Below, one piece after another: positions 2,581 through 49,596 of a DNA stretch of 64,000 bases. The notes under the pieces are model-generated. The model was given only the letters and a program-made list of their open reading frames with translations, made no database searches and was not told where the DNA came from. The DNA is from Verrucomicrobiota bacterium. Its GTDB lineage: Bacteria; Verrucomicrobiota; Verrucomicrobiia; Opitutales; Oceanipulchritudinaceae. The translations under genes were made by a program, and so were the position numbers. The DNA is taken from the NCBI GenBank assembly GCA_033762955.1, contig JANRLC010000048.1, positions 1 through 64,000 of the forward strand. The letters run 5' to 3'. Position 1 is the stretch's first letter. Every line of letters begins with the position of its first letter.

Positions 2581-3759
2581 CTACTCAAACACCACGCCGA
2601 GCTTCATAAAGGTATCCGGCGGTGTAAGCAGACTGAGAACGGTGAGCCCATCGTCCCGCAGGTCGTAGTAGTAGGCGGGGTGCGTCAGTACTCCATTATA
2701 TTTCAGCCATCTGTGGGAGCGCATGTCTCCATAAAGGCCATCGTCGCAGCGAATCAGTGAACACCAGCCACCTTCGCGGGGTAGGAGAGTGATGTGCTGT
2801 GGGTACTGTGTGCACAGTTCGCGTAGAAACGTATCATTGGTGGTGAGTCTGGCGTTGATTTGTCGTTGCAGATCATGGCGGGTGTTGAGTAACGCCCCCG
2901 CGGCATGCTGCACCGGTGCCCCCGCAGAAAGGTAGAAGTCTGCGATATACTCCAGTCTTGCCAGGGCGTCATAGACCAAATGAAGGGGACCATACACGGC
3001 CACCCACCCGAGTTTCATTTGAGGTAAGCCGCAGACCTTCGAGAGCCCGTTGAGCACAAAGGTTAATGCCTTTCGCCTAGGCTCTCGTGTGCGTGTGGCG
3101 CCGGCGGCCGGGAAGTCGTAGAATACCTCGTCCACTATCAGAGCAAATCCATGCTCCGCTGCCAACTCTTCCAGTAGGTCATAGTCCTCTGCGTGCAAGT
3201 AGTTCCCCGTTGGATTGCTGGGGCTAATAACCACCAGCGCACGTGTGCGCACCGAGATGGCTGCCGCCAGGCGGTCGAAGTCGATCCTCCAGGTCTGTGC
3301 ATTCTGGGAAAAGGTCAACCGGTACCGCACGGCGACCAGTCCCTCAAACTGCGCGAGAAACTCCACCAACGGGTAGCCCGGCGTGGGGTAGAGCACCTCA
3401 TAGCCCGGCTTAGCCAGCAGCTTGAAGAGCAGCGCGTAAGCCTCGCTCGTGCTCGCGGTTAGCAGAATGCGATCCGCCGGCATGCTCCACCCGCGCTCCG
3501 CGTAGTAGCGGCTCACCGCCTCGCGCGCACAGAGCAACCCTCGCGCCGTCGGCTCATACCGCAGCGCAGCGGGATTCGCAAATGCTTCCATAATCGCAGC
3601 CTCATCGTAAACAAACCCCGCTGCCGTTGGGTTCGTCTCAATGAGATCATAGATTATACCTCCTATTTTCCGACGCTGGTTAACAGCATCGGTCAACGGA
3701 TTCTCCTCACCACTCCATTCAACACGGTTTCCAAACATGCTGTCAGCATGGACGAACAC
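2581..3759 (-). CDS. PLP-dependent aminotransferase, class I/II
   Basis: The 392-aa ORF has the aminotransferase fold signature (SPSNPTGNY ... LSKVCGLPQMKLGW with the lysine in SK). Confidence 0.7.
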   Translation of the reverse strand: MFVHADSMFGNRVEWSGEENPLTDAVNQRRKIGGIIYDLIETNPTAAGFVYDEAAIMEAFANPAALRYEPTARGLLCAREAVSRYYAERGWSMPADRILLTASTSEAYALLFKLLAKPGYEVLYPTPGYPLVEFLAQFEGLVAVRYRLTFSQNAQTWRIDFDRLAAAISVRTRALVVISPSNPTGNYLHAEDYDLLEELAAEHGFALIVDEVFYDFPAAGATRTREPRRKALTFVLNGLSKVCGLPQMKLGWVAVYGPLHLVYDALARLEYIADFYLSAGAPVQHAAGALLNTRHDLQRQINARLTTNDTFLRELCTQYPQHITLLPREGGWCSLIRCDDGLYGDMRSHRWLKYNGVLTHPAYYYDLRDDGLTVLSLLTPPDTFMKLGVVFE

Positions 3760-6335: not shown

Positions 6336-6529
6336 GTGTTTGTAGTTCGCCTTGCCACCCCGTTGGAGTTCCTCTGCTTCAGCAGGTTCTCGTCATCGGC
6401 GTCAATCGCGTCAGTAAGGTCAATCAAGTCAACGTCACACACACACACCCACTGCCCAACAAGCTGAAGGCGCAGACATCCCGAAGTCATGGGCTCTATT
6501 CATTTCCCACGACCTTAGCGCGTCTGAAC

Positions 6530-7438: not shown

Positions 7439-7660
7439 CGTGCAGACATCCTGCTGTCTGCACGCAAAGAAAGAGAATTTCAGCGAACCCCGGGAAGTAG
7501 AATGAACACTTGAGGACTGTGATCGAGGTGCTATGCACTCCATGCAGCGCCAACGGCGCGACCTTATACCAGCCTGGGCCATCGGCCCAGGTTCGTACCA
7601 ATATATACAGGATCGCGAGCGCTGAAGGCGCGGAACCAGCGGGATGTACACCATCCCCTG
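7439..7660. mobile_element. MITE-like palindromic repeat, copy A
   Basis: About 80% identical over about 215 bp to the reverse complement of 11122-11333. It starts with the hairpin CGTGCAGACATCCTGCTGTCTGCACG and contains GAGGTGCTATGCACTCCATGCAGCGCCAACGGCGCGACC...CAGCCTGGGCCATCGGCCCAGG...ATATATACAGGATCGCGAGCGCTGAAGGCG. Confidence 0.7.
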
Positions 7661-8001: not shown

Positions 8002-8082
<81 letters not shown>

Positions 8083-8610
8083 TTAATTTCCTCTCGGGAA
8101 AACGTCCCCGCCTTGGGCAACAGTCCACCGGCGTAGATCCCGATGTACCGGAATCGCCTAAGTCGCTGACAGCAAAGGCTTACGCAGCCACCACTGCATA
8201 ACCGGGTTCTCTCAGTTTCGCACGTCCAAGACGCAGCGAACATCAGCAGGAACGCTTATCGTGAAAATCTCGCCCATGTCTCTCAGATTCATCTGCGAGA
8301 GCCAAAAGCTTAAGCAACTGTTTCGCTGCCATGGGTTATCCTCATTGAACTCAAATCAGAACTGAGATTTTGGCTCAGGTAATAATATATTCACACAACC
8401 TTGTAATTAAAAAGGAAGATTACCGCTTGGCGTGTTTCCGGGGATGTAACTATAATGTACTTCATCGGCAGTAAACCACCAAGAGTACGGCAGACAATTA
8501 CAGCACATGGTCAAGAAGCAAATGCAATCCAGACCGACAGCAATTGTATGTAATTATTAACAAAAACCTCAACTTATGTCGGCTGCATATTTGCAGCTTG
8601 AAATTAACTG

Positions 8611-10809
8611 TTGGGCACCTTTGGAAACACCATTATGCATGACCATATTCTAAAATCATGGCTTGGCGATATACCACCATTCAATGACGAAATCGGTCAC
8701 AAGACGGGGATTGTCAGCCCGGCCTGGAACGTTGATCATGCGGAAATGTATCCGACAATCCCGCTCGATCACGCCACCATCCGCATGGTTGGATCCGCCG
8801 AAGTGCTGCTTACGTATGCGATGCCCGGGCATCCGCCGCTGGCCATCGCCCCACCATGCTGGTCGCTCGACGACCGCGAGGTGGTCGGCGCTGTCGCTTG
8901 CTGGCGAACCGGCGAGCAGCGCGACCTGCCCAACGGCTGCCGCGAGAGCGCGTGGAGCGGCGACCTTGTTCAGGCCCCCGGCCACCGCCTCGAGCTGACC
9001 CTGCGCTGGGCGGCCGACGATCCGGTGGTGCGCTTCCGCTTACGGCTGCACGGCCCCGGCCAATTGACCAAGCCCGAGGGCCGCGACCGGCTGCGCTTCC
9101 TCGCCTGCGACCTCGCCGACGCCGGCGACGTGACGCTCGTCGAGCTGTCGGCGTTTAATGAGCTGACCCACAGCTACCAGCCGGTCGAGCGCGAGCTACA
9201 GACCGGCGTGCACGAGATGGGACCGATCGTGGTGGCGAGTCGTGGCGGGCAGTCGCTCCTGCTCGCTTACGAGCACGGCTCGCAGGCCAACGAGGCCTTC
9301 CTCGCCTACGTCCGCGACGGCGACCAGCTTCGCCTCGACGCGGTGCAGGGCACCTACTGCTGCGGCGATCCCCTGCCGTGGACCTCGCCGTGGCTCGAGG
9401 TCGCGACGGTGGCCGGTGACCGCGACCAGCTCGCCCGCGCCTACCGCCGCTTCGTCCTCGACCACCTCGCCCTGCGCCCGGCGACACGGCGGCCGCTGAT
9501 CTGCTACAACACCTGGAACCGCCAGGAACGAGCCAAGCACTGGGAAGGGAAGCCGTACCTCGCCGACATGAACGAGGCGCGCATGCTGCTGGAGGTCGGC
9601 ATCGCCGCGCGCATGGGCATCGACGTCTTCGTCCTCGACACCGGCTGGTACGAGAAGACCGGCGACTGGCGGACCTCGCGCGAACGCTTCCCGCGCGGAC
9701 TCGATCCGGTGAAGGCGGCGCTCGACGCCAACGGCATGCGCCTCGGCCTGTGGTTCGGGCCGCTGCACGCGGCGCTCAGCTCGCAGGCGCGGGCCGCGCA
9801 CGAGGACTGCCTTATCTGCAGCCACGGCAAGCCGTGGGACGCGCATCCGGTGTGGGAGACCGAGGCGAGCCAGAATCTGTGCCTCGCTTCGCGCTGGGCC
9901 GAGGCCTTCGCCGACGAGCTGATCCGACTGCACCGTGAGACCGGGGTCACGGTGTTCAAGTGGGACGCCATCGGTCAATGGGGCTGCGATGCGCCGGGGC
10001 ACCGCCACGGCGGGACCGAGGCAACGCGCGAGGAGCGCGCCGCGCGCTACGCCTATCTCCTGCCGCTGGCCATGGCCGAGGTGGTCGAGCGCCTCGCCGA
10101 GGCGGTGCCGGAGGCGATCGTCGACTTCGACGTCACCGAGGGCGGCCGCGCCGTCGGCCTCGCATTTCTCGCCTCGGGGCGCTACTTCCTGATCAACAAC
10201 GGGCCGTACTTCGCCAACTACGACCTGCCCAACGCGGTCGACGGCAACAGCAACATATTCCTCGGCCTCGGCCAGACCCGGGCGATGATCTGCCGTCAGA
10301 GCTACGCCTACGACCGCTGGCTGCCGGCCAACCTCACCCTGGTCCACTACCTGCCGGACGATCCGGCGCCGGCGGCGAGTTCGTGGACGAGGCCCAACGC
10401 CGCCGTCGATATCCTCGAGGTCACGCTGGCCTCGGTGGTGCTCGGTCACAACGGCTTCTGGGGCGACCTGACGGCGGTGTCGGAGGCCGGGGTGGCACGC
10501 ATCCGCGCCGTCCTCGAACGCTGGCGCACGGTGCGCGACGCGGTCACCCGGGCGCAGCCGCGGCGCATCGGCGCTCCGGGCATGGCGCCGGAGATCCACG
10601 AGAAGCTGCACGACGGGCGCGGCGTGGTCGCCATCTTCGCCGCCCAGGCCGGCGCCTGGGAGCACGTCACCACCGGGCCGGTGGCGCAAGCCGACTGGGC
10701 CATGCCGAGCGTCAACGGCGACACCATCATCACCCGCCTGCCCGACGGACGGGCGCGCATCCGCGCCGTGTTCCGCGCGCCCGGGGCGCGGCTGGCGGTG
10801 TTCGGCTGA
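8611..10809 (+). CDS. GH36-family alpha-galactosidase (melibiase-like), horizontally acquired
   Basis: The 732-aa ORF has the GH27/36 (DxGW) signature FVLDTGWYE. Coding GC is about 72% from about 8850 onwards against about 56% for its neighbours. Confidence 0.7.
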   Translation: MGTFGNTIMHDHILKSWLGDIPPFNDEIGHKTGIVSPAWNVDHAEMYPTIPLDHATIRMVGSAEVLLTYAMPGHPPLAIAPPCWSLDDREVVGAVACWRTGEQRDLPNGCRESAWSGDLVQAPGHRLELTLRWAADDPVVRFRLRLHGPGQLTKPEGRDRLRFLACDLADAGDVTLVELSAFNELTHSYQPVERELQTGVHEMGPIVVASRGGQSLLLAYEHGSQANEAFLAYVRDGDQLRLDAVQGTYCCGDPLPWTSPWLEVATVAGDRDQLARAYRRFVLDHLALRPATRRPLICYNTWNRQERAKHWEGKPYLADMNEARMLLEVGIAARMGIDVFVLDTGWYEKTGDWRTSRERFPRGLDPVKAALDANGMRLGLWFGPLHAALSSQARAAHEDCLICSHGKPWDAHPVWETEASQNLCLASRWAEAFADELIRLHRETGVTVFKWDAIGQWGCDAPGHRHGGTEATREERAARYAYLLPLAMAEVVERLAEAVPEAIVDFDVTEGGRAVGLAFLASGRYFLINNGPYFANYDLPNAVDGNSNIFLGLGQTRAMICRQSYAYDRWLPANLTLVHYLPDDPAPAASSWTRPNAAVDILEVTLASVVLGHNGFWGDLTAVSEAGVARIRAVLERWRTVRDAVTRAQPRRIGAPGMAPEIHEKLHDGRGVVAIFAAQAGAWEHVTTGPVAQADWAMPSVNGDTIITRLPDGRARIRAVFRAPGARLAVFG

Positions 10810-10975
10810 GCGGTACTGGGTGGGTTTGCGAAACCGCATCCCCGCCCTATGCTGCGGCCATGGCGATCGAGCGTCCCATCCTCCTGGTCGGTGGCGCCCC
10901 GAGCGTGCCGGTGTACGCCGTCCGCCACCTCACCGTCGCGGCGACTGGCACCACCGCCCATATTATTAGAGTCCT
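10810..10975 (+). pseudogene. truncated 5' fragment of a high-GC donor gene (MAIERPILLVGGAPSVPVYAVRHLTVAATG...)
   Basis: High GC continues for about 160 bp after the GH36 stop, with an ORF start and no completion; GC then drops sharply. Confidence 0.35.
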
Positions 10976-11039
10976 CATGCGCTACATAAATCCAGACATC
11001 CTGAAGTCGTGGGAATTGAGATGAATCCTGTTTGCCTTT

Positions 11040-11335
11040 AAGAGCACCAACGGCGCGCACTAGCCATAGCCTGGCCAACGGCCCAGGTTTAGACTAAACA
11101 ATGCCATGAGCGTTGAAGGCGCGTGTCCTACAACCCGCTGGGGACTCGCTTTCAGCGCTCCCGATCCTGTATATATATCGTTTTACCTGGGTTGTTGGCC
11201 CAGGCTGTCTTAAGGTCGCGCCGTTGGCGCTGCATGGAGAACATAGCACCTCTACCACAGTCCTCTAGGGTTCATCCTACTTCACGCAACCGCCGGGAAT
11301 CCCTTTGTTTTCGTCCTGACTTCAGGATGTCTGAA
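11040..11335. mobile_element. MITE-like palindromic repeat, copy B (inverted relative to copy A)
   Basis: See copy A. It also carries the internal palindrome CGCTTTCAGCGCTCCCGATCC / GCGCCTTCAACGCTCATGG shared with copy C, and ends ...GACTTCAGGATGTCTG. Confidence 0.7.
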
Positions 11336-11493
11336 ATCAGGGTCAACCCTTCTTGCACCACAGGTTCCAGGAGCCGGTAGTTCATGATCCTCGTGATTCT
11401 TGAGCGGTCCATTCCAGTGATGACAGACAACTCGGCATAGTCATCGACTTTTCCCGCTGCAAGCCACTCGTCGAATACAACTGCACAGGCCAT
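11272..11493 (-). CDS. small HTH DNA-binding protein (hypothetical); 3' end overlaps MITE copy B
   Basis: MACAVVFDEWLAAGKVDDYAELSVITGMDRSRITRIMN carries a helix-turn-helix. The last 20 or so codons are encoded by MITE sequence. Confidence 0.35.
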   Translation of the reverse strand: MACAVVFDEWLAAGKVDDYAELSVITGMDRSRITRIMNYRLLEPVVQEGLTLISDILKSGRKQRDSRRLREVG

Positions 11494-11677
11494 CAACCGG
11501 GCTTCGCGGGGCACTGGTTCGGCTCTGTTGCGATTGGACCGAGGGGGTGCGAATGATTGAGGAAGACAAAAAAACGGGCTAACCAATAAAGGAATAAAAA
11601 CTCAGATGCGCCCGCAGATCAGAACCATTCAACATAACCTTGTCAAATCACACAAAGACTTGATAGGCTAATGGAAC

Positions 11678-14026
11678 ATGGTCTCATCAATCCTCTCCTT
11701 CATTACGGAAAATCCGGTGTATATCGTCTTGGGTTTTGCCATTTTGTTTGTGCTCTATAACTCGATTACCATTGCGCGTGGTGATCAGATTATCACGCTT
11801 GAGCGACGGTGGTTTGGGCGGCAAATGCCGGATGGGCGCACGGTGGCTCTCTCAAATGAGGTCGGTGTGCAAGCGCGGGTTCTTGGCCCAGGTTTCCACT
11901 TCCTGATTCCATTCATTTATAGAACATCGAAGTATTACTTCATCGACATCCCGCCAAACCAGGTCGGTGTTGTCCGGGCGATTACGGGCAAGCCGATTCC
12001 GTCTGGCAGCTACATGGCGAGGAGTGTCGAGTGTGATCTTTTCCAGGATGGGGAAGCCTTTCTGCGCAATGGCGGTGAAAAGGGTCCGCAACTGGCCATT
12101 CTCCCTGAAGGGCAATACAAGCTGAACCCGAAGCTCTTCGAGGTGAAGATTGTCGATGCCATCATGATTCAGGATAACGAGGTGGGCTATGTCGAGGCCA
12201 TCGATGGGCAACCGGTTACCCGGGTTGGCGGGAACTTTGGTTCACCCGTTCAATGCGACAGCTTTCAGGACGCAGAAGCTTTCATTAAGAACGGCGGTCA
12301 GAAGGGACCCCAGATATTCTTCCTCGTACCCGGATTCTACCGCATCAACACCATCCTCTTTCAGGTGGAGAAGCGTCCGATTACCGAGATCAAAGGTGGT
12401 CAGATAGGGTTGGTTGAGGCGACGGATGGGGCGCGCATCCCCGAGGGCCGCCTCTTGTCCGTCAAAGTCGTAGGCCATAATAATTTCTATGATGGCGAGG
12501 CATTCATCCAGAACGGTGGCGAAAAGGGCCGCCAGCTCGATGTCCTCATGCCGGGTCGCTACCGTATCAACCCTGCGTTATTCAAAATAATCAGCGTGGT
12601 AGATTGGACGACGATTGATGCGGACCAGGTGGGGATCGTGACGATTTTAGAGGGTAAGCCTATTGTAGATTCCACGAAGATTGCCGCTGAAGAGTTACCG
12701 CTGGGTACCCATAACAATTTCCAGGACCCCGCGGCATTCCTCGCAGCTGGCGGGCAGAAGGGTTTGCAGATTCCAGTACTGCGTGCGGGTAACTACGCCA
12801 TCAACCCGTGGTTCGCATCGGTTGAGAAAGTCCCCATGATTCGCGTGGATATTGGTTACTGTGGCGTGGTGACGAGTTATGTAGGGCCGGAGGGTGCTGA
12901 TCTCACCGACGATGCCGTGAACGCGAAGATAGTAGCCAATGGTTACAAGGGGATATGGGCAGACCCGCTTCAGCCCGGCAAGCACCCGCTCAACACCAAG
13001 ATAATGAAGGTGGACATTGTCCCCACTACACAGATTCTCCTCAACTGGGCGGACAGCCGCTCCAGTGCGCATGAGCTTGATTCCAACTTGAAGACGATCA
13101 CGCTGCGCACCGCAGATGCCTTCAACGTAAACATGGATGTAAGTGTTATAATCCATATCCCGATGAAGAACGCACCGAAGGTTATTGCGAATCTCGGGTC
13201 TGTTAAGAACATGATCTCCCAGGTGCTGGAGCCCGCCATCAGCTCACACTTCCGCAACTCTGCCCAGTACATCAAGGCGCTCGATCTCTATACCGAGCGT
13301 AAAGAGCTGCAGGAGATGGCCAAAGCCCATATTGATGCGGTGCTTAAAGTTCACCACATTGACTCCAAGGACACATTGATAGCGGATGTGGTACTGCCTG
13401 CTGAGTTGACCAAGACTGTCACCAACCGGCAAATTGCAGAGCAGGAAAAGAAGACCTACGCCACGCAGAAAGAGGCGCAGGACGAACGCCGCTCCCTCGA
13501 GAACGCCACTGCTCAGGCTGCCATGCAGCCGAAGGTCGTGGAGTCCGAGCGCAATGTGGAAATCCAGAAGAACGTTGCCGAGGGCAAAGTCCGCGAGGCC
13601 GAGGGCTCCAAGGCCGCCGCCATTCTGCATGCCACCGGAGAATCCGAAGCCATCAAGCTTAAGGCCACAGCACAGGCCGAAGCCACGAAAGTCACCGCCA
13701 TTGCCACGGCGGAGGCCACGGCCAAAGTCGGTAACGCCGAAGCCGAGGTCATCCTGGCCAAAGGCCGTTCGAATGCCGAAGCCTACAGGCTCGAGGTCGA
13801 GGCCATGGGCAAGGATGTCTTTGGGCAAATCCGTGTCATCGACAAGATCGCAGCCAGCAATCTCAAGCTCATCCCCGAGAACCTCGTTATCGGTGGCGGC
13901 GGCGGTAGTGGCGATAACGGTGGGCTCATGAACGGCTTCTTCGGCATCAGCCTGCTTGAAAAGCTAACAGGGCGCGGGTTCACTGTCCGAAGCGATGATA
14001 CGAATACCCTGCCTCCCAAGAAGTAG
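11678..14026 (+). CDS. SPFH/flotillin-like membrane protein with four N-terminal tandem repeats
   Basis: It has an N-terminal TM helix and an SPFH N-motif LGPGFHFLIPFI. Four repeats of about 90 aa follow (FQDGEAFLRNGGEKGPQLAILPEGQYKLNP, FQDAEAFIKNGGQKGPQIFFLVPGFYRINT, FYDGEAFIQNGGEKGRQLDVLMPGRYRINP, FQDPAAFLAAGGQKGLQIPVLRAGNYAINP). The C-terminus is a flotillin-type A/E-rich coiled coil (AEAEVILAKGRSNAEAYRLEVEAMGKD). Confidence 0.7.
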   Translation: MVSSILSFITENPVYIVLGFAILFVLYNSITIARGDQIITLERRWFGRQMPDGRTVALSNEVGVQARVLGPGFHFLIPFIYRTSKYYFIDIPPNQVGVVRAITGKPIPSGSYMARSVECDLFQDGEAFLRNGGEKGPQLAILPEGQYKLNPKLFEVKIVDAIMIQDNEVGYVEAIDGQPVTRVGGNFGSPVQCDSFQDAEAFIKNGGQKGPQIFFLVPGFYRINTILFQVEKRPITEIKGGQIGLVEATDGARIPEGRLLSVKVVGHNNFYDGEAFIQNGGEKGRQLDVLMPGRYRINPALFKIISVVDWTTIDADQVGIVTILEGKPIVDSTKIAAEELPLGTHNNFQDPAAFLAAGGQKGLQIPVLRAGNYAINPWFASVEKVPMIRVDIGYCGVVTSYVGPEGADLTDDAVNAKIVANGYKGIWADPLQPGKHPLNTKIMKVDIVPTTQILLNWADSRSSAHELDSNLKTITLRTADAFNVNMDVSVIIHIPMKNAPKVIANLGSVKNMISQVLEPAISSHFRNSAQYIKALDLYTERKELQEMAKAHIDAVLKVHHIDSKDTLIADVVLPAELTKTVTNRQIAEQEKKTYATQKEAQDERRSLENATAQAAMQPKVVESERNVEIQKNVAEGKVREAEGSKAAAILHATGESEAIKLKATAQAEATKVTAIATAEATAKVGNAEAEVILAKGRSNAEAYRLEVEAMGKDVFGQIRVIDKIAASNLKLIPENLVIGGGGGSGDNGGLMNGFFGISLLEKLTGRGFTVRSDDTNTLPPKK

Positions 14027-22419: not shown

Positions 22420-22650
22420 CGCGACTTTTCAAATAAATAAAGGATCGGGAGCGCTGAAGGCGCGACCCAAGGGAGTTGTAGGACCGCTCCTTAGGTCGCG
22501 CCTTCAGCGCTCATGGTGTTTTACTGGTCTAAACCTAGGCCGTCGGCCTAGGCTGGGGCTGGATCGCGCCTTCAGCGCTACCAAGGCAAATTGGGTTCAT
22601 CTCATTTCCCATGACTTCAGGATGTCTGATGTTAGTGTCGAAAAAAAACG
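22420..22650. mobile_element. MITE-like palindromic repeat, copy C
   Basis: GGATCGGGAGCGCTGAAGGCGCG ... GTCGCGCCTTCAGCGCTCATGG ... GTCTAAACCTAGGCCGTCGGCCTAGGCT ... GACTTCAGGATGTCTGA matches copies A and B. Confidence 0.65.
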
Positions 22651-27995: not shown

Positions 27996-28997
27996 ATGGA
28001 TAAAGTGGAAAAGAAGGCTGGGTTTCATCCTGATCCGGGGTTGCGGTTGATGGAGCAGGTGCGGGAGGGGTTGCGCTACTATCATTATGCTTACCGGACA
28101 GAGCAGATTTATTGCGAGTGGATTGACCGGTTTGTGAAGTTTTATCGGGATGAGCGGCATCCGCGAGAGATGGGGAGCCTGGAGGTGGAGCGGTTTCTCT
28201 CTCATCTGGCTTCGGTGGAGCAGGTTTCGGCTTCGACGCAGCGACAGGCTTTGAATGCCCTGGAGTTTTTGTATGACAGGGTACTTCTCCAGCCACTAGC
28301 CGGGGAAATTGCTCCCATCCGGGCCAGGCCGGGTCAGCGTCCGCCTGCGGTTTTGACCGTGGCGGAAACGGGCGCGTTGCTGGGGGCAATGAAGGGAACA
28401 CATGGGGTGATGGCGCGGTTGCTTTATGGGGCCGGGTTGCGCTTGATGGAGTGTGTCCGGCTGCGGATTAGGGATGTGGATTTTGGGCAGGGGCTGGTGT
28501 ATGTGCGCGATGGCAAGGGGGGAGGGGAGCGTACGGTGCCGCTGCCGAAGCGGTTGAAGCCGGCCTTGCTGGAGCACCTGCGACGGGTGCGGGCTTTGCA
28601 TGAGAGTGATCTGGCGGAGGGTTTCGGTGCGGTGTGGCTGCCGGAGGCTTTGTCGCGTAAATACCCGCAGGCTGAGCGTGAGCCGGGGTGGCAATATGTG
28701 TTCCCGGCCAAAAAGCGTTCCCTCGATCCGCGCAGTGGTCGGGAACAACGGCATCATGTCATGGAATCGGGGGTGCAAAAGGCGGTTAAGGTGGCGGTGG
28801 CCAGGGCGGGGATCACGAAAAAGGTGGGGTGCCACACTTTGCGTCATAGTTTCGCCACCCATCTGCTTGAAAGTGGGGTCAATATTCGTGTATTGCAGGA
28901 GTTGATGGGGCACAGGAATGTGAAAACTACCGAAATGTATACCCGTGTTGTGCTCGGTAATAAGCAGGGTATCACCAGCCCACTGGACAGGCTGTGA
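27996..28997 (+). CDS. intI: integron integrase (tyrosine recombinase IntI)
   Basis: Alignable by eye to IntI1: LRYYHYAYRTEQIYCEWIDRFVKFY; the IntI-specific insertion VWLPEALSRKYPQAEREPGWQYVFPAKKRSLDPRSGREQRHH; and catalytic HTLRHSFATHLL ... GH ... TEMYTRV (R-H-R-Y). Confidence 0.9.
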   Translation: MDKVEKKAGFHPDPGLRLMEQVREGLRYYHYAYRTEQIYCEWIDRFVKFYRDERHPREMGSLEVERFLSHLASVEQVSASTQRQALNALEFLYDRVLLQPLAGEIAPIRARPGQRPPAVLTVAETGALLGAMKGTHGVMARLLYGAGLRLMECVRLRIRDVDFGQGLVYVRDGKGGGERTVPLPKRLKPALLEHLRRVRALHESDLAEGFGAVWLPEALSRKYPQAEREPGWQYVFPAKKRSLDPRSGREQRHHVMESGVQKAVKVAVARAGITKKVGCHTLRHSFATHLLESGVNIRVLQELMGHRNVKTTEMYTRVVLGNKQGITSPLDRL

Positions 28998-29960: not shown

Positions 29961-30015
29961 GGTTGCATAGGAGGGCTGGACAGGGGGTGGTTTGGGCTAT
30001 GGAATTGGGGAACTT

Positions 30016-32088
30016 ATGAAACATGATTTTAGTCCGGTAGCTCCGTTGGGTCGCTCAAACATTAGCCATCTGCGGCCTGCGGGTTTTGATACTTTCTGGT
30101 TCGGGGTGTGCTACTACCCGGAGCATTGGGACGCGGAGACGCGGGCTCTCGATGCGGAGCGGATGGCGGCAGCGGGGGTGAATGTAGTGCGGATGGGCGA
30201 GTTTGCGTGGGACTTGATGGAGCGGGTGGAGGGGGTGTATGACTTTAGTTTGTTTGACGAGACGATTGCGCATCTGGCCAGGCATGGGATTAAGACAATC
30301 TTCTGCACGCCGACGGCGGCTCCGCCGCGGTGGTTGACAGTACAGCATCCGGAGATACTGCGCCAGGACAGGCTGAATACGGAGCTTAAACATGGTTCGC
30401 GGCAGCATGCGGACTACAGTCACCCTACGTTCCGGGAGTATTCACGTCGGATCACGGAGGTGCTGGCTGAGCATTACAAGGATAATACAGCGGTGATTGG
30501 GTGGCAGACGGACAATGAGATTTACTGCCATTTCTCAGATGACCACAGCCCGGCGACGCGGGCGGCGTTTATCGCGTTTCTAAAGGAGAAGTATGCGGGC
30601 GACATTGTTGCGCTGAACCGGGCGTGGGGTACGGCTTTCTGGGCGCAGACTTACGGGAGTTTCGAGGAGATTGATACGCCGTATGAGAATCGACCGACGT
30701 ATCCGAACCCTTCGCAGCAACTGGACTATGCGCGGTTCCTGAGCGAGACGGTGGCGCGGTTCCAGCATGAGCAGATTGCGCTCTTGCGGGCGGCGAATGC
30801 GGGGTGGTTCATCACTCATAATGGGGTGATGAGCAAGACGGACTACCGGGGGCTGTTTACGCAGGACCTGGATGTGCTGGGGTATGATGTGTACCCGTTC
30901 TTCGACACGAATCCCACGTCCCGCCCGTGCAGCCACGCATTTGGGCTGGACCGTGTGCGGGCGTTTAGCGGGAACTTTATTGTGCCAGAGCACCAGGCTG
31001 CGGCGGGTGGACAGGCGCCGTACTTTCATAATGCGCCGGAGCCGGGGGAGATGCGCTTGTTTACGTACCGGAGCATCGCGCGCGGGGCGGATAGCGTGCT
31101 GTACTTCCGCTGGCGCACGTGCCGGTTTGGGGCGGAGATTTACTGGTGCGGGATTCTGGACCATGACAATGTGCCGAGGCGGCGCTACGCGGAGCTGAGC
31201 CAGATCGGCGGGGAACTGAAGCGCGTGGGTCCGGCCCTGCTGGGCACTTCTGTGCGCGTGGAGGTGGCGTTTGCGGAGGGGGACTATGCGGCGACAGAGG
31301 CGCACTTAACTTACCCACTCGGTCTACCCTCGGAGGGGACGGCGGCAGTCTGGAGCCATCGGTGGTTCTTCGAGCGGGGGTATGCGGTGGGTTGTGTACA
31401 CCCTGCGGATAACCTGGATGGTGTGAAGCTGTATATTATCCCCCATTGGACTGTGTTTGACCCGGCCTGGGTGCCTGCGCTGGAGCGATTTGTAGAGCGG
31501 GGTGGGGTACTGGTAATCGGTGCGAGGACGGCGTCGCGTACGTTAGATAATCAGGTAACTGCGGAGACGCTGCCGGGGTGCCTGGCGAAGCTGGCCGGAG
31601 TCACGGTGGAAGAGTATGGCCGGCAAAACAAGGGAGACCTGCGCCCACAGAAGCTGCAGCTCGGCGAAACTGAGGTGGAGAGCGCGGATTGGTACGAAGT
31701 GCTGGGCCTGCAAGGGGCGGAGGCGCTCGCAACCTGGACCACACGGCACCTGGTGGGCTTGCCTGCAATCTCGCACCGCAAGGTGGGGCGCGGGCATGTG
31801 CTCTATGTGGGGACGTATTTCTGTAACGGGGCGCTCTTCGATGCGCTCTGGCCCGTGGCTGGTAAACTGGCCGGTGTTTCCCCACAACTGGTGGAGCACC
31901 CGGCGGGGATTGAGGTAGTCGTCCGCGAAAAGGCGGGAGTGGAACTGTGGTTTATGCTGAATCGCAACGAGACGGCAACCCGTGTACCGCACCCACCGCT
32001 CGGACAGGACCTGGTGACGGGAACCACCGTGGATGGCCCCTGCGAGATAGAGGCGAGTGGCGTGCGAGTGGTGGTGCAAAGACGGTAG
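30016..32088 (+). CDS. GH42-family beta-galactosidase
   Basis: FWFGVCYYPEHW ... GEFAW ... WQTDNE matches the GH42 N-terminal TIM-barrel motifs; the protein is about 690 aa. Confidence 0.75.
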   Translation: MKHDFSPVAPLGRSNISHLRPAGFDTFWFGVCYYPEHWDAETRALDAERMAAAGVNVVRMGEFAWDLMERVEGVYDFSLFDETIAHLARHGIKTIFCTPTAAPPRWLTVQHPEILRQDRLNTELKHGSRQHADYSHPTFREYSRRITEVLAEHYKDNTAVIGWQTDNEIYCHFSDDHSPATRAAFIAFLKEKYAGDIVALNRAWGTAFWAQTYGSFEEIDTPYENRPTYPNPSQQLDYARFLSETVARFQHEQIALLRAANAGWFITHNGVMSKTDYRGLFTQDLDVLGYDVYPFFDTNPTSRPCSHAFGLDRVRAFSGNFIVPEHQAAAGGQAPYFHNAPEPGEMRLFTYRSIARGADSVLYFRWRTCRFGAEIYWCGILDHDNVPRRRYAELSQIGGELKRVGPALLGTSVRVEVAFAEGDYAATEAHLTYPLGLPSEGTAAVWSHRWFFERGYAVGCVHPADNLDGVKLYIIPHWTVFDPAWVPALERFVERGGVLVIGARTASRTLDNQVTAETLPGCLAKLAGVTVEEYGRQNKGDLRPQKLQLGETEVESADWYEVLGLQGAEALATWTTRHLVGLPAISHRKVGRGHVLYVGTYFCNGALFDALWPVAGKLAGVSPQLVEHPAGIEVVVREKAGVELWFMLNRNETATRVPHPPLGQDLVTGTTVDGPCEIEASGVRVVVQRR

Positions 32089-42665: not shown

Positions 42666-43124
42666 CGGGTTTATGCCAAGACAAGGCTGATTGGACACGC
42701 TGAAAGGACAGACAAGAATGTCTATCCCACATTGCCCAATACCTCAATCCGTGGGATCGAGGCCATCCTGACTGCTCTGTGCGGGGTACACCAAGCGAAG
42801 CGACTTGCCTTTCCCTGCCTTTGCCCTTTCTGCCATCTTCCTGTTGCCTTCTGCCTTTGTCTTTTACCAACAAAAAGCGGACAGAACCACATGGTGATCC
42901 TGTCCGCTGGAATACTTATAGCTACTGCCTTGATTGACTAGGCGGTTTTACTCATGGGTTCGGCTTCGGTCCGGATTACATTGAGGTTATTACTACCGCG
43001 TTCGCGGTGGGTTTGGAGATATCCGAACTCAGTGGTCTTCTCGAATACGCTGGGCGTCATCGGGGTTGTCTGTAGCGCCAGGTTCGGCTTTCATTTTCTG
43101 TTTTCGACATCGCCTCGATTAACG

Positions 43125-44684
43125 TTATGGATGTCGTGCAACCTTAGCACGGAGCATGTCCATGTGCATCTCAGCGCGCTTCTTCTGCCCTTCCTCTGTA
43201 ATGAGTGGATAGACCGCCTCAAGCCGCGCCAAAGCCTGTGAAGCAACTTCACCTTCAAGCTCCTCGGTTGACGTTGCTTCCAATGCTGTCATTACAAGCC
43301 ACGGCTCAGCTGAAGTGTAGAGCGGAGCTAAATCAGCGAACTTCGCCCCGATCATCCATAGCGTTTGGTGCTGAGTGTAAGCTTCCTGACTGTTCTTGGG
43401 TGGATGACTTGGTATGGCCTCTACTAGCCGCGGAATGCCTGGCCTGCCAAGCTGGCGAAGTTCGGATAGGACTTTCATACTTCGAGAATCATCCGACATC
43501 CCGGCCAAAGCGAACTCAGTCAACTGAGTAGCAATGTCATCAAGCTTCGCTTTTACTCTCTCCATGGCCAAACCCTGATCAGTCCTTTCTTCCAGCGGAA
43601 CCTTCGCCCAATTGCAGAACTGGGTAATTGCGTAGCTCTCTGAAGGAGGATTCTGTTTTCGAGCCAAATCCTTGGCGATTTGCCCGCGTACCGAACGGCA
43701 GGCGAGATCCAGTTCAGAGAGTATGCTTGAAATCCGGCTTAGCGCCTCGACGACGCCCGTTCGGTCCTCCGGTTTGCTGTGGTAAATCTCCAGAAGCTCG
43801 GGAATGAACTCAATCGCCTCTACGTTATAGCACAGTGATGAATAATCCAGCTCCGGCGGACGGTCTTTACGAAAGGTGTGGAATGCCTGCCAAATTCGCG
43901 TTTGTCTGGGCCCGGGATCGAGGGCTCCGTGGTCTGGCAAGATGAGTTCAATGCTGATCTTGGGCCTGTTTGGAATGACCTCGGAATATCCCTCGTTCAA
44001 TACCCGGCTCCCGATTGACCGCTGCCAACTGTGATTAAGCACCAGCTTCTCCGGTTGATCTTTCAATTCCCGAAAACTCAGATTCCAGAACGTTGGCTTG
44101 CGCTGCAAATCCCCGGGCGGATCAGACATCGGCTGAATTTCCAAGGCGACACTCTGGCTCGCACGCAACCGAAATCGGAATTTGCCTTGGGAATCACTGC
44201 TTGATGATCGCTTCTGCATACTCAGACCATTCTCGTGGAAGTACTCATTAATTCTGACTCCAGAGAGAATATTGCCCCTGATGTCGCGCAATTGAAGTTC
44301 GACTCGTGTTGAATTCACAAAGTCTATCAGCAAGGCGACCCCCAGCCATAGGATTACCGCGGGGATTACTGTTGAGAGTTGCCGCGCTTCTTTTCTCGGT
44401 CGGCAAAAGAATGTAGCTATCAGACCAAGGAGACAAATCGCGAGAGCCGGCAGCAGAATAATGGCCATCATTCCAGCAAACCCTGCGTCCGGTCCGCTCA
44501 TGCTCCCGATGTGGCTCAGAATCCTGAGGATCTTGAATGCCGCGTAAGCAAAGACTCCGGTGGTTGGAAACCATATAAAAACGACCCACCGACGGCTACG
44601 GAAAGCGAATGAAAGACTGAGCCCACAGATCAGGGCGAAGAGCCCCACCAATGCGGATGTGAGGGATAGCTGGGAGAAAATCAT
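43125..44684 (-). CDS. cassette ORF, large multi-TM membrane protein (about 519 aa), hypothetical
   Basis: Start chosen at MIFSQLS, 35 bp downstream of the R-prime box. Four N-terminal TM helices are followed by a soluble domain. Confidence 0.5.
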   Translation of the reverse strand: MIFSQLSLTSALVGLFALICGLSLSFAFRSRRWVVFIWFPTTGVFAYAAFKILRILSHIGSMSGPDAGFAGMMAIILLPALAICLLGLIATFFCRPRKEARQLSTVIPAVILWLGVALLIDFVNSTRVELQLRDIRGNILSGVRINEYFHENGLSMQKRSSSSDSQGKFRFRLRASQSVALEIQPMSDPPGDLQRKPTFWNLSFRELKDQPEKLVLNHSWQRSIGSRVLNEGYSEVIPNRPKISIELILPDHGALDPGPRQTRIWQAFHTFRKDRPPELDYSSLCYNVEAIEFIPELLEIYHSKPEDRTGVVEALSRISSILSELDLACRSVRGQIAKDLARKQNPPSESYAITQFCNWAKVPLEERTDQGLAMERVKAKLDDIATQLTEFALAGMSDDSRSMKVLSELRQLGRPGIPRLVEAIPSHPPKNSQEAYTQHQTLWMIGAKFADLAPLYTSAEPWLVMTALEATSTEELEGEVASQALARLEAVYPLITEEGQKKRAEMHMDMLRAKVARHP

Positions 44685-44718
44685 GACGGCTAGATGTTGG
44701 GGAAGGTGATTATGCGCG

Positions 44719-44809
44719 TGCCGAACGTCTAGCTCATCCACGGCGGGGATGGAAGCCCGAATTCAAACTGGAGCGTTACCCGCCGTTGGATGGAGCGTCT
44801 TGTTCGCCT
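44719..44809 (-). other. integron attC site
   Basis: Top strand GCCGAACGTCTAGCTCATCCACGG ... CGTTGGATGGAGCGTCTTGTTCGCC. Confidence 0.6.
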
Positions 44810-44826
44810 TTGGTTTATGAGTTTGT

Positions 44827-45405
44827 CTATGCTGGATGAGTAAGTCGTGTGATGATCTCTTCAACGTCACGGACACCAGCAATAGCTAAGAAACCGTGGT
44901 CAGTGGATTGTCTGCCACCATCACCATCACCCGCCCAAGTCCGCTCAAAAATGAGGTCTCCAGTCCCATCTGGCTTCTGAACCCGTCGGATGTCTTTGAG
45001 TCGGTCGGGATCAAATGAACGAATTGTCATGGAACCAAATACACCACCAGCTAGGACAATAGCTCGCTGATCCGTGATGACATAGGCAGTTCTTCGAGCC
45101 ATTCGTCGCATCCAGTATGGACTGGAAAGCATACCAAATCCGATGAGGACGAATGGCAGGCCGAACAGTGGGAAAATGCCAAAGCCCTGACTAAAGTCGG
45201 GCATCTTGAACCCGCTGGCTCCAGCAATCCAGAAAAGAGCAAACGCTGTCCAAGGTATGCCAAACAGCACAAGTCCGATACTACGCCGGGCAAAACAACC
45301 AGGAATGGGCTGTCCAGTCCATGTGACACGTTCTCCATTTCGCAGTTCAGCATCAATAAGACGAGAAACATCGTGCGGTAAATTATTTGTGTGGTGGAAT
45401 TGCAT
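44827..45405 (-). CDS. cassette ORF, membrane protein (2 TM plus a bPH-like domain), hypothetical
   Basis: 192-aa ORF starting 16 bp after the R-prime box. Confidence 0.5.
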   Translation of the reverse strand: MQFHHTNNLPHDVSRLIDAELRNGERVTWTGQPIPGCFARRSIGLVLFGIPWTAFALFWIAGASGFKMPDFSQGFGIFPLFGLPFVLIGFGMLSSPYWMRRMARRTAYVITDQRAIVLAGGVFGSMTIRSFDPDRLKDIRRVQKPDGTGDLIFERTWAGDGDGGRQSTDHGFLAIAGVRDVEEIITRLTHPA

Positions 45406-45420
45406 AGGGTTTCATTTTTT

Positions 45421-45487
45421 GCCGAACGGTAAAGATGAGCCACGAGGCATGACAGCGGTGGACGTTGGCTCTGGTGCCTGGTTCGGC
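45421..45487 (-). other. integron attC site (best-preserved exemplar)
   Basis: Top strand GCCGAACGGTAAAGATGAGCCACGAGGCATGACAGCGGTGGACGTTGGCTCTGGTGCCTGGTTCGGC. R''/R' are GCCGAAC/GTTCGGC. L''/L' are GAGCCA(A)CG / CGTGGCTC with one extrahelical base. Confidence 0.75.
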
Positions 45488-45488
45488 C

Positions 45489-45851
45489 TCATGTGATAAC
45501 CGAAGATACCGCGACGCGACAATTCTCGGCCAAACCGTAAACCTTGTCGGCTTCGTAGTCGAATAGCTCGTAGTGCACCGATTCCCAGCCTCTCGAGCTA
45601 ATCTTATCTACGTCGAAACCGATGAGCTGGTGAATGGATGCAATGCGGAAATCGCGAACATTGCCGAAAGTGACATCGATCTGCCCCTTCTTTCCTTTGA
45701 GCACAAAGGAGACAATCTTTTCGAATCGCTCGCGATCTTCCTCGTAATATGTGTCGATAGACAGGCACTTAAGATCCGTAAAATCACCGAATGCGCAGTC
45801 GCCATACTGTGCTTTGACATCGGCGTAACCTGGAAGATCAGCGAGCGACAT
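45489..45851 (-). CDS. cassette ORF, hypothetical protein (120 aa)
   Basis: The stop codon directly abuts the R'' box. Confidence 0.5.
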   Translation of the reverse strand: MSLADLPGYADVKAQYGDCAFGDFTDLKCLSIDTYYEEDRERFEKIVSFVLKGKKGQIDVTFGNVRDFRIASIHQLIGFDVDKISSRGWESVHYELFDYEADKVYGLAENCRVAVSSVIT

Positions 45852-45859
45852 TGTATTTT

Positions 45860-45958
45860 CCGAACGTTATAGATCAGCCACGACTATGGCTGGCGCACAG
45901 CCTGCGCAAGCAGGATGCGTGACTGACATAGTCGTTGTGCTGTAGCGCCTGATTAGGC
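45860..45958 (-). other. integron attC site
   Basis: Top strand CCGAACGTTATAGATCAGCCACG ... GTCGTTGTGCTGTAGCGCCTGATTAGGC. Confidence 0.65.
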
Positions 45959-45964
45959 TCATGT

Positions 45965-46663
45965 TTATTGTATTTCTTTGCAGATAAAACTCCGTACGAC
46001 CGGTTGCGCTAGAATCATAGCTAATTCATCGTGCAAAACTTTTTCCTTGTTTCCGCCTGGAGGTGATGGATGGCTAAACTTAATAACTAAACGCTTGCGG
46101 TGAATGAATATTCGGTCTGCTGGACACGTGAACTCAGTGCTGGGATGGTATGCTGCGTGATAAGACCAAAAGGTGTTAGCGCACAAGATCACGTCGGGAC
46201 AAATAAGATCAATTTGCTCAGTGAGAAACTCTTTATCTCTGATTGCCGCTTGCTGTATCAGCTTCTGTGAGGAGGTAGTCTCTCCTAGCTCCTTGGAAAC
46301 ATTTACATAGGCGATATCTGACAACTGTATGGTTCCGGCATACCTTGAGTCAAATGCATCATACTCAGCTTGAGAACTTGATGCGTTACCGGTGTAAACC
46401 GATTTAATCAGATCCCTCCATCGAACAATATTGCGCCATATAATTGGGAATTTCCCGTTTCGCGCAATTATTTCTATTGGGCTCCCAGATATGTTATACC
46501 AATTCGCTTTTTTGTGTGATTCCTTCATCAGGAACAAAATCCTAGGCTTTGCGGTCATCCACGCTTCAGGGCTTAGGATGCCGTCCCGCACAAAGGGATT
46601 ATACCCCCGAGTGTGAGCCCACCTGTCTTGTAGTTCGGTTAACTTTTCGATTTCGATGTCCAT
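45965..46663 (-). CDS. cassette ORF, hypothetical protein (232 aa)
   Basis: Bounded by attC sites on both sides. Confidence 0.5.
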   Translation of the reverse strand: MDIEIEKLTELQDRWAHTRGYNPFVRDGILSPEAWMTAKPRILFLMKESHKKANWYNISGSPIEIIARNGKFPIIWRNIVRWRDLIKSVYTGNASSSQAEYDAFDSRYAGTIQLSDIAYVNVSKELGETTSSQKLIQQAAIRDKEFLTEQIDLICPDVILCANTFWSYHAAYHPSTEFTCPADRIFIHRKRLVIKFSHPSPPGGNKEKVLHDELAMILAQPVVRSFICKEIQ

Positions 46664-46669
46664 GTTATT

Positions 46670-46770
46670 TCTACCTTACGTCATAGATGAGCCACGAGCG
46701 TGCTCGACGCCAAAGCCTGCCCCGCAGCCGACGTGCCAAGCACGCTCGTTGGCTCTAGCGAATGATCAGG
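46670..46770 (-). other. integron attC site (R-prime box degenerate)
   Basis: Top strand CCTTACGTCATAGATGAGCCACGAGCGTGCTCG ... CAAGCACGCTCGTTGGCTCTAGCGAATGATCAGGC. Confidence 0.55.
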
Positions 46771-46771
46771 C

Positions 46772-47455
46772 TCATTTTTCATTCATCCAATTTAGTGTAT
46801 TGTTTATAGCCAGACACCATGCATCGTAAGCCGGACGCGACGGATGAGGTATGGAGTATATTAAGCATCCATCGACCACTGCGCTATTCCGGAATCCAAT
46901 CGGACCTTGGGGGCTCAATAACTGGTTCACCGCTGCTAAACCTGCATGACCTCCAACAAACACGACATCAGGTCTCAGTGCCATAATCTCAGCCCAGATG
47001 TATCTTCCGGTGTCAGAATGGCCGACTGCAGATATCGCTGCGTAATCCTGCGGTTTCACTGAATTGGACTGTGCTCGGATATTGTAATATATCGTTCTGT
47101 CTAAAGTGTCTTCAATCATATCATCGTTGGCAAACGCTGCGCTAAGCATCTCTCGCGACGCCGCTATCTTCTTCTGGAAACACGCTAGTGCTACATGGAG
47201 AACAGCAAAAGTGTATCGAGTCGTCTTAGTGCCCGTGTCGCCGGCATCATAAATCCAATCAATTAGGTCGTCTCGTGTAACATCGAACACGCCCATTTTC
47301 TCATAGCCATACGGTTCCATATTAACGGCGACAACTTTGAATGGCTCATTCCAGTAGCGGTCCGTTGTCGGTCCGTAGAACATGTGATGTGTCGCTCCGG
47401 AATCAAGAAGGTGCTTCCGTAAGCTAGCGCGGGCTTCGTGGAATTTATGGATCAT
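46772..47455 (-). CDS. cassette ORF, hypothetical protein (about 227 aa)
   Basis: Start moved to the internal MIHKFHEAR so that the R-prime box GTTCGGC lies 19 bp upstream, as in the other cassettes. Confidence 0.45.
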   Translation of the reverse strand: MIHKFHEARASLRKHLLDSGATHHMFYGPTTDRYWNEPFKVVAVNMEPYGYEKMGVFDVTRDDLIDWIYDAGDTGTKTTRYTFAVLHVALACFQKKIAASREMLSAAFANDDMIEDTLDRTIYYNIRAQSNSVKPQDYAAISAVGHSDTGRYIWAEIMALRPDVVFVGGHAGLAAVNQLLSPQGPIGFRNSAVVDGCLIYSIPHPSRPAYDAWCLAINNTLNWMNEK

Positions 47456-47474
47456 GAATTGATTGATTAATTCT

Positions 47475-47639
47475 GCCGAACGCATAGGTCAACGACGGGA
47501 GCCAGCCTCCGATGACGTTCGATGTGTCTCTGAGCGAATCGGCTGGCTCACGTTCACTGGACCGTCTGGTTCGCCTTCTTCTTCATTTTCGGTCCCATGA
47601 CGCGAAACAGGCTTTGTCTTCAATCCAGCCTTGTTCGGA
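47475..47639 (-). other. integron attC site, unusually long or compound
   Basis: Top strand GCCGAACGCATAGGTCAACGACGGGAGCCAGCC ... GGCTGGCTCACG ... GGTTCGCC ... TTGTTCGGA. Confidence 0.45.
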
Positions 47640-47642
47640 TTT

Positions 47643-47897
47643 TCAGAAGAAGACAATCGGTCCACCGCTAGCGGTGCATGACTCTGCCAGATAAACGGAG
47701 ATCACATCAGGTTCATCCTGTGAAATGCCCACAACCACAAGATTGTAAGCCTTGGCCGCAGACTGGACAATCAGCGCGACTTCTCCTTGGGACGCTGCCA
47801 TTTCACCAGCGGCATTCTTACAGTTAAAATCGCCTTGCTCAGACACGCAGCCTGCCACAAATACAAGCGCGAAGGAAATGATGCGATGAAGGGCCAT
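47643..47897 (-). CDS. cassette ORF, small lipoprotein (84 aa)
   Basis: MALHRIISFALVFVAGC gives the lipobox. It starts 6 bp after the R-prime box. Confidence 0.45.
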   Translation of the reverse strand: MALHRIISFALVFVAGCVSEQGDFNCKNAAGEMAASQGEVALIVQSAAKAYNLVVVGISQDEPDVISVYLAESCTASGGPIVFF

Positions 47898-47902
47898 TCT
47901 AT

Positions 47903-47990
47903 CGGCGAACGTAAAAGTGCGCTACGGATGAAACTAAGCCTAAGACGTTTGCTCCCCCGACTTGCTCTACAATGCGGGGCAACTTAGAAT
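47903..47990 (-). other. integron attC site (degenerate)
   Basis: Top strand CGGCGAACGTAAAAGTGCGCTACGG ... the far box is weak (AACTTAGAA). Confidence 0.4.
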
Positions 47991-48625
47991 CTAGATATCA
48001 AACCTAAAAAATAGGAAATAATAGCAGTAATAATAACTAGGATAATGTTATCCTTATTACGATACCAGAAACTTTTATACTTATGTTTTCTGTTTAAGAA
48101 GATTTTTGATGAACCAATAAATGAGTGTCCAAGAAATAAGATATAAAATATGACCAGTGATAGCAGTAAACCAGCTGGATACTTAATGAAATTATTCAGG
48201 GGAAGAAATGGGGTAAGATATACTATCAGAAAAATAGACATACCACATATCATTCCGAGAATACCATTCCACCAATAGCCAGTAGGATGCCATGAGTACC
48301 ATTTAACATGTGAGCTTAATAAATCCTTTACGAAGGGCGCATCTTTTTCGTTTTGATAGGGACGGCTAATTGTAACACCTCTTGGCTCAATATCTATGCG
48401 AATTTCATCAAAGGAGTTCTTGTACCTGAAAATAAGATTAAGGGAAGAAATGTGATCCCTTGATACGTGCTCCAATAATTCTTCTAATGACTCGTACTCC
48501 GTATTGTCATACATCACACTCAATTCTGAGTCATCAGGAAGTTGTCGGATTAGATTATCTAAATCATCAAGGTATAATCTAATTGGAGGTATCCTAATAG
48601 GGGCAGTGCTTCTGATTATTTTCAT
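47984..48625 (-). CDS. cassette ORF, membrane protein (about 214 aa), hypothetical, about 33% GC
   Basis: Start moved to MKIIRSTAPIRIPP, 6 bp downstream of the R-prime box. The longer ORF-track start lies inside the attC. Confidence 0.45.
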   Translation of the reverse strand: MKIIRSTAPIRIPPIRLYLDDLDNLIRQLPDDSELSVMYDNTEYESLEELLEHVSRDHISSLNLIFRYKNSFDEIRIDIEPRGVTISRPYQNEKDAPFVKDLLSSHVKWYSWHPTGYWWNGILGMICGMSIFLIVYLTPFLPLNNFIKYPAGLLLSLVIFYILFLGHSFIGSSKIFLNRKHKYKSFWYRNKDNIILVIITAIISYFLGLISRF

Positions 48626-48630
48626 TTTAT

Positions 48631-49587: not shown

Positions 49588-49596
49588 TGTATTTCT

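Follow-up and report, generated by a model that had tools for sequence, protein, structure and literature searches.

Genes acquired singly by illegitimate recombination are marked by foreign composition, by incongruent phylogeny, by ends that cut through donor genes or spacers, and by the absence of mobile genes and repeats, and islands inserted at tRNA genes by tyrosine integrases are marked by an integrase and a repeat of the tRNA 3' end. Here, we describe a case to be set beside both in a 64,000-nt stretch of a Verrucomicrobiota bacterium (the window; positions 1 to 64,000 of contig JANRLC010000048.1, assembly GCA_033762955.1), in which a segment of high guanine-plus-cytosine (GC) content holds one complete gene resembling glycoside hydrolase family 36 (GH36) and the truncated start of a second gene. 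Solved GH36 structures include LaMel36A of Lactobacillus acidophilus (2xn0), AgaA and AgaB of Geobacillus stearothermophilus (4fnr and 4fnq), an enzyme of L. brevis (3mi6), and TmGalA of Thermotoga maritima (1zy9). We conclude with good confidence that the segment, at 8692-10959, is a real and little-ameliorated horizontal acquisition, most probably a random ~2.27-kb piece of chromosome from a high-GC, Planctomycetota-like donor that was joined to the host genome by illegitimate recombination. The locus resembles described single-gene illegitimate acquisitions in all the features listed for them above and differs from them in that its mechanism is read from absent signatures, with no significant microhomology at the junctions. 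A search of the literature found nothing bearing on this locus.

Composition, limits and relatives of the segment

The GC content of 8692-10959 is 0.709, against a mean of 0.547 (standard deviation 0.045, maximum 0.617) in 577 other two-kb windows (z = 3.6). Followed in 200-nt windows, GC rises from 0.40-0.50 (8300-8800) to 0.67-0.77 (8800-10900) and falls back to 0.53-0.57 past 10950, and among 1-kb bins the pair spanning 9001-11000 (0.706 and 0.711) tops the entire 64 kb, every remaining bin being at or below 0.634. Across the GH36-like gene itself (8746-10809), GC at codon positions 1, 2, and 3 is 0.72, 0.51, and 0.91, and the third-position value (GC3) compares with 0.57-0.80 in the other long open reading frames (ORFs) of the window. 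Segment GC and GC3 both lie outside the range of the host, as is characteristic of horizontally transferred DNA. A preliminary description, made from the sequence alone, had reported a sharp GC step together with foreign codon composition, and both were borne out here, with the flanking value of ~56% GC given there corrected to ~51-53% (window mean, 55%). The housekeeping genes of the flanks (ribH, ftsY, an aminotransferase gene, and dnaE; GC 0.55-0.60) have the same composition as the flanks around them.

The limits of the segment can be placed closely. Homology to the high-GC relatives' loci L004, L003, and L005 starts at 8692 (blastn), and the left breakpoint falls within 8676-8692. On the right, the breakpoint is 10959/10960, where nucleotide homology to the DFP-domain locus L170 and donor-type composition end together and ...ACCACCGCCC changes to ATATTATTAG. 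The segment and its parts, in window coordinates, are as follows.

8692-10959: donor-derived high-GC segment, ~2.27 kb, delimited by GC content and blastn homology
8611-8745, plus strand: in-frame upstream extension of the ORF, coding not supported, made of AT-rich host DNA (8611-8691) and donor spacer (8692-8745)
8692-8745, plus strand: donor upstream spacer of 54 nt, from alignment with relatives
8746-10809, plus strand: intact GH36-like (Melibiase) gene of 687 amino acids (aa), from PF02065 and homologues
10810-10859: high-GC spacer of 50 nt between the GH36-like gene and the gene fragment
10860-10959, plus strand: truncated start of a DFP-domain gene, 33 codons, from HMMER and nucleotide homology to L170

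The closest relatives of the GH36-like protein are 73-90% identical to it, and after this tier, identity falls to 57% or less. Among species-representative genomes, the best matches are Planctomycetota metagenome-assembled genomes (MAGs; L008 at 89%, partial; L005 at 87%; L007 at 78%) and an unclassified MAG (L006, 82%). All close relatives with a phylum label are Planctomycetota MAGs, and the nearest homologue labelled Verrucomicrobiota, from Opitutaceae, is 47% identical. At the nucleotide level, identity is 84-90% (L173, 90.1%; L172, 89.2%; L004, 88.3%), and the relatives' loci are themselves 66-73% GC, with the gene matching local composition there. In a neighbour-joining tree, the window copy falls within this clade, where its sister group comprises L004, L005, L003, and L001, and L002, L006, and L007 branch outside, so that gene phylogeny and host assignment are incongruent in the way expected of horizontal transfer. 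The proposal of a foreign origin from a high-GC donor thus stands: the nearest relatives occur in high-GC genomes of another phylum and outside the host's own close kin, and no comparable GC richness is seen around the segment. The nearest relatives had been expected among Actinobacteria and proved, by their labels, to be Planctomycetota MAGs, and an actinobacterial donor is rejected on this basis. The only match in the plasmid database was a partial one to Curtobacterium at 67%.

The transfer had also been called recent. The GC3 of the window copy (0.911) is set against 0.934-0.954 in its four closest relatives and 0.76-0.87 in more distant ones, and counts of lineage-specific GC-to-AT and AT-to-GC changes (43:5 in the window copy versus 11:3 to 69:12 in the relatives) gave no clear signal of amelioration. 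The word therefore holds only in the loose sense that no amelioration is detectable, given that the nearest sampled relative is just 90% identical in nucleotide sequence.

The GH36-like gene and the gene fragment behind it

The ORF at 8611-10809 encodes 732 aa, and all 12 homologues compared (49-89% identity) start at its residue M46, which corresponds to nucleotide 8746. Within the N-terminal 80 residues, positions 46-80 align with these same homologues and positions 1-45 with none of them, and the stretch that corresponds to the extension is intergenic in the relatives. Nucleotide homology to the donor clade continues for 54 nt 5' of the ATG at 8746, into the 64-nt intergenic region that separates an AraC-type gene from the GH36-like gene in the relatives; in L003, gene calling puts the divergent AraC-type gene on the minus strand at 2902-3717, with its start 11 nt left of the point where homology begins. 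The alignment reveals a spacer block, ATCGGTCACAAG...GGATTG.CAG, that is conserved between the window and five relatives. A consensus scan located a promoter-like TTGTCA-17-GATCAT at 8711-8739 in the donor spacer, whose -35-like hexamer lies within this block and is conserved in all aligned relatives, and from which the transferred gene may be expressed.

The preliminary description had taken the host-like composition of the first 240 nt or so of the ORF to suggest a chimeric 5' end. These nucleotides instead begin with 81 nt that belong to the host (8611-8691), continue through the 54-nt donor spacer (8692-8745), and end in a gene start that is natively lower in GC: over the first 90 nt of the gene, GC is 0.60 in the window, 0.56-0.63 in the five closest relatives, 0.49 in L006, and 0.59 in L007, all below the whole-gene GC of the relatives (0.65-0.73, ~0.72 overall). 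The M46 start of the homologues, the donor homology upstream of it, and the low-GC gene start of the relatives all tell against a chimeric 5' end. Judged against the same homologues, the start of the public NCBI/PGAP entry (MDX2110102.1, "alpha-galactosidase," 724 aa), at ATG 8635, appears to be 37 codons too long.

The protein carries the Melibiase domain PF02065 (clan GH-D) at ORF residues 309-513 of 732 (57 bits against a cut-off of 27, E = 2e-15), as do all of its homologues. An AlphaFold model (predicted local distance difference test score, 93.9; predicted template-modelling score, 0.93) has the three-domain architecture of GH36, namely a (beta/alpha)8 barrel with one beta domain on its N-terminal side and another on its C-terminal side. 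The top 25 Foldseek matches in the PDB are all GH36 alpha-galactosidases or GH36 galactosaminidases, the best of which cover the whole chain (E = 1e-31 to 1e-27, template-modelling scores of 0.61-0.67, identity of 11-15%). Profile and predicted fold together place the protein in the GH36/Melibiase superfamily. The gene is full length and intact: of 180 columns with at least 90% conservation across 58 homologues, it departs from the consensus at 3 (median of the others, 5).

In common with the solved GH36 alpha-galactosidases, the protein has the Melibiase domain, the whole-chain fold, and conserved VLDTGW and FKWD motifs. It differs from them in being only 11-15% identical, with sequence similarity limited to ~100-210 residues of the barrel, and in having TEGGRAVG in place of GGGRxD. 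The aspartate of the KWD motif, which aligns with that of "fkgD" in the GH36 galactosaminidase 8x1b, is D407 in the 687-aa numbering, a position that we take to be that of the GH36 catalytic nucleophile; neither K405 nor D407 varies among 59 homologues. The canonical acid/base aspartate of GH36 sits in the GGGRxD motif. The matching region here, which lies outside every alignment obtained to solved GH36 enzymes, reads DFDVTEGGRAVG (TEGGRAVG), in which no aspartate follows the arginine, and D460, D462, E465, and R468 are invariant.

With respect to activity, "alpha-galactosidase" is an annotation label (JGI and NCBI), and the best NCBIfam match, with a beta-L-arabinopyranosidase model, is partial and weak, scoring 36 bits where the cut-off is 1100. 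To our knowledge, the ~700-aa GH36-like subfamily has no characterized member. The product is presumably a cytoplasmic, divergent, GH36-like retaining glycosidase, with alpha-galactosidase or a related activity. In the relatives, the gene stands alongside an AraC-type regulator and, in L001, also near genes for a glycoside hydrolase family 28 (GH28) enzyme and a fucosidase, a neighborhood that fits a role in carbohydrate use. Elsewhere in the window, 19 kb from the GH36-like gene, a gene for a glycoside hydrolase family 42 (GH42) beta-galactosidase of host-like composition (29992-32088, plus strand; GC 0.61, GC3 0.71) indicates that the host already owns galactoside-related enzymes.

Behind the GH36-like gene, a second ORF starts at 10860 (MAIERPILLVGG...) with donor-type codons (GC3 ~0.91 over 33 codons, counted by hand). 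Its relatives emerged when 1.84 billion representatives were scanned in full with HMMER: the fragment matched the N-terminal regions of ~230-aa DFP-domain proteins at 72-81% identity. Among them were P0259 (81%), P0260 (238 aa; residues 1-33, 79%), and P0266 (229 aa; residues 22-49, 79%), and the latter two carry PF04127 (DFP, the CoaB-like phosphopantothenate-cysteine ligase domain). The 34-aa fragment by itself gave no match in Pfam, and a word-index search with the 54-aa ORF that contains it found only the ORF itself. To L170, the locus of the best match, nucleotide identity is 85.6% over 10856-10959, and there homology stops. The earlier report of a truncated, co-transferred gene fragment was therefore correct: the fragment matches the N-termini of DFP/CoaB-like proteins but holds just 33 of ~235 codons, ~14% of the gene. 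The 54-aa "hypothetical protein" annotated here, SFY80_07680, runs on to 11024 through host DNA and a transposable element, and is an artefact, the nonfunctional stub of a DFP-domain gene.

The gene that follows GH36 in the relatives is a different one. It is clpP in six of them (gene calls in L002, L003, L004, and L172, the sequence tail of L173, and the alignment of L008) and a fucosidase gene in L001, and in L173 clpP starts 69 nt past the GH36 stop codon. The spacer at 10810-10859 resembles the relatives' GH36-clpP spacers only marginally (z = 1.4-2.9, p = 0.006-0.11).

Integration of the segment and its surroundings

Around the segment lie a tRNA gene, an AT-rich stretch, two copies of a miniature inverted-repeat transposable element (MITE), and a small ORF.

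8006-8082, plus strand: tRNA-His (GTG), from ARAGORN, Rfam tRNA 65.9 bits
8083-8691: AT-rich stretch of 609 nt from tRNA-His to the insert, no gene identified
7443-7648: MITE copy A, partial, inverted relative to copy B
10993-11333: MITE copy B, complete, 341 bp, 33 nt right of the insert
11272-11586, minus strand: small host ORF, weakly matching a phage "recombinase" family

Both ends of the segment cut through donor features, the left end through the AraC-GH36 spacer and the right end at codon 34 of the DFP gene. Given these ends and the absence of an integrase, a transposase, an att-like repeat, and a target duplication, illegitimate recombination is the most probable route of entry. No significant repeats were found to bracket the high-GC block, and the only microhomology between the two junction areas was an ACCACC hexamer, which we roughly estimate to be at chance level. 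We propose that the host took up a linear piece of donor chromosome, which entered a genome of ~55% GC through illegitimate (nonhomologous) recombination, 610 nt downstream of tRNA-His. The GH36-like gene would have arrived with most of its own upstream spacer and the promoter-like site and would have lost its AraC-type regulator, and 33 codons of the donor's next gene, DFP/CoaB-like, would have been carried along as debris. MITE B inserted in a separate event, 33 nt from the insert.

A reconstruction of the small minus-strand ORF bears on where the fragment landed. This ORF (11586-11272) now has its 3' end inside MITE B; it matches phrog_14161 (E = 1.3e-4) and belongs to no Pfam or NCBIfam family. 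When the MITE and one copy of its target duplication are removed, the ORF reads across 10960 into foreign DNA, and when the foreign block is removed as well, it ends within 10-30 codons in the left flank (for boundaries at 8676-8695). This places the insert at, or within, the 3' terminus of the ORF.

The insert was placed correctly by the preliminary description, between two MITE copies and near a tRNA gene (610 nt away), and neither the MITEs nor the tRNA could be tied to the acquisition. MITE B is bounded by 14-bp terminal inverted repeats (CAGACATCCTGAAG), is flanked by a 5-bp target duplication, AAATC, at 10988-10992 and 11334-11338, and folds as a long hairpin (z = -9.8); copy A is 79% identical to the right 205 nt of B. 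Two further members of the family occur in the window, a partial copy at 22433-22628 and a 54-bp relic at 6473-6526 that consists solely of terminal repeats. That inverted copies bracket the gene could be taken to mean that they formed a composite element that captured and moved it. A composite transposon would have like copies and a duplication outside the pair, and this locus has neither: A is partial and only 79% identical to B, and the duplication on both sides of B marks a solo insertion, so that B arrived independently and does not delimit a composite element. Moreover, the host tRNA-His lies within the bracketed interval, and the high-GC block stops 33 nt short of B and ~1 kb from A, leaving capture by the MITEs with hardly any probability.

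The MITEs are also informative about the assembly. High-GC relatives of this gene turn up often in metagenomes, the contig itself derives from a MAG, and the exact GH36 protein is recorded on a single contig, so that 2.3 kb of Planctomycetota DNA might have been misjoined into a Verrucomicrobiota contig. The SPFH protein encoded downstream, the 54-aa ORF holding the fragment, and the GH36-like protein (P0138, P0258, and P0267) share the database label "MAG: ... [Verrucomicrobiota bacterium]" and come from one 66,808-bp contig with SFY80_ tags. A chimera of this kind would require two independent misjoins that return to the same genome, and neither junction has a repeat or shared sequence able to mislead an assembler. 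Members of one MITE family on either side of the insert indicate that both flanks come from one genome, and the block is identical to no sampled sequence (best, 90% in nucleotides). We therefore regard an assembly chimera as quite improbable.

A somewhat stronger competitor, though still an unlikely one, is a larger integrase-borne island at tRNA-His of which the segment is what survives, deletions and MITE activity having trimmed away the integrase, the att repeat, and the remaining codons of the DFP gene. The locus is like tRNA-associated tyrosine-integrase islands in lying 610 nt downstream of a tRNA gene, with mixed composition and repeats nearby, and it is unlike them in lacking an integrase and a duplicated tRNA 3' end and in comprising just 2.3 kb and one gene. 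No integrase was found within 17 kb, the sole tyrosine recombinase in the window (27996-28997) being XerC/D-like, and the tRNA-His 3' end is repeated nowhere in the 64 kb (allowing up to 3 mismatches). The small ORF beside the insert weakly resembles a recombinase family and MITE copies cluster here, as an island might predict, but on its left the high-GC block begins within an intergenic spacer of the donor and not at the end of an element.

The AT-rich 609 nt between the tRNA and the insert would also suit an island. Their GC is 0.45 (0.41 over 8250-8691), a 29-aa ORF at 8243-8332 has no Pfam match, and an Rfam search over 7-12 kb returned only the tRNA; five promoter-like matches occur there against 0.7 per shuffle, in shuffles that ignore the uneven composition of the region. 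On the other side of the insert, a 782-aa SPFH/Band-7 (YqiK-like) gene (11678-14026, plus strand) has relatives that are 73-90% identical, in assemblies labelled Gammaproteobacteria, Thermoanaerobaculia, Patescibacteria, and Anaeromyxobacteraceae; its homologous loci L085-L089 (62-65% GC) match at ~80% in nucleotides over the gene alone. It looks like a widely exchanged single gene, here with host-like composition, and its 80-90% identical relatives under several other phylum labels could be counted in favor of an island. From the tRNA to 14 kb, however, the DNA has three compositions (0.41, 0.71, and 0.55), which argues against one island.

Several observations weigh against acquisition of a single random fragment by illegitimate recombination. 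The host is assigned to Verrucomicrobiota by the submitter's label only, and the two junctions lie on a single MAG contig. Search for an empty site found no close relative of the host: PhzF relatives in the metagenome scan were at most 57% identical and lacked synteny, and the closest homologous loci of the SPFH neighbor (L085-L089) were likewise not syntenic. Look-ups for an exact match to the SPFH protein of the window returned no contig. The AT-rich 8083-8691 could be the remnant of a larger element. The GH36-DFP gene order is absent among the sampled relatives (tblastn with DFP homologues found none in L001-L169, and the DFP loci L170 and L171 have no GH36 gene), which implies either that the true donor is unsampled or that the fragment was assembled in two steps. 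Weighed against the evidence from composition, phylogeny, and the cut ends, these points still leave a random donor fragment joined by illegitimate recombination the probable origin of the segment.

Two other regions of the window deserve mention. Between 22000 and 28000, GC is 0.44-0.54, and minus-strand ORFs with weak HNH and T5orf172/MUG113 domains precede the XerC/D-like recombinase gene, a combination that may represent another variable or defense-type islet. At 43100-50000, six consecutive minus-strand ORFs (192-538 aa) belong to no Pfam family, and the GC minimum of the window (0.365) falls at 48-49 kb, just upstream of dnaE (51496-55275).

Meaning of the acquisition

A more far-reaching account would combine precisely delimited uptake of naked DNA across phyla by purely illegitimate recombination, with the gene's own promoter kept and its AraC-type regulator lost, and a widespread GH36-like subfamily that has a noncanonical acid/base motif and possibly another substrate or mechanism; taken as a whole, we consider this account doubtful. 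What we describe is an ordinary horizontal transfer of a carbohydrate-active enzyme gene, and it leaves knowledge of gene transfer, as of GH36 enzymes, unchanged. It corrects two public annotations, namely the start of the GH36-like gene and the 54-aa "hypothetical protein," which is a dead stub, and it flags a large GH36-like subfamily without a characterized member. That the fragment cuts donor features argues for a random piece of DNA over a mobile element, and with its left breakpoint placed within ~15 nt and its right breakpoint to the exact nucleotide, the locus offers a clean worked example of transfer between phyla.

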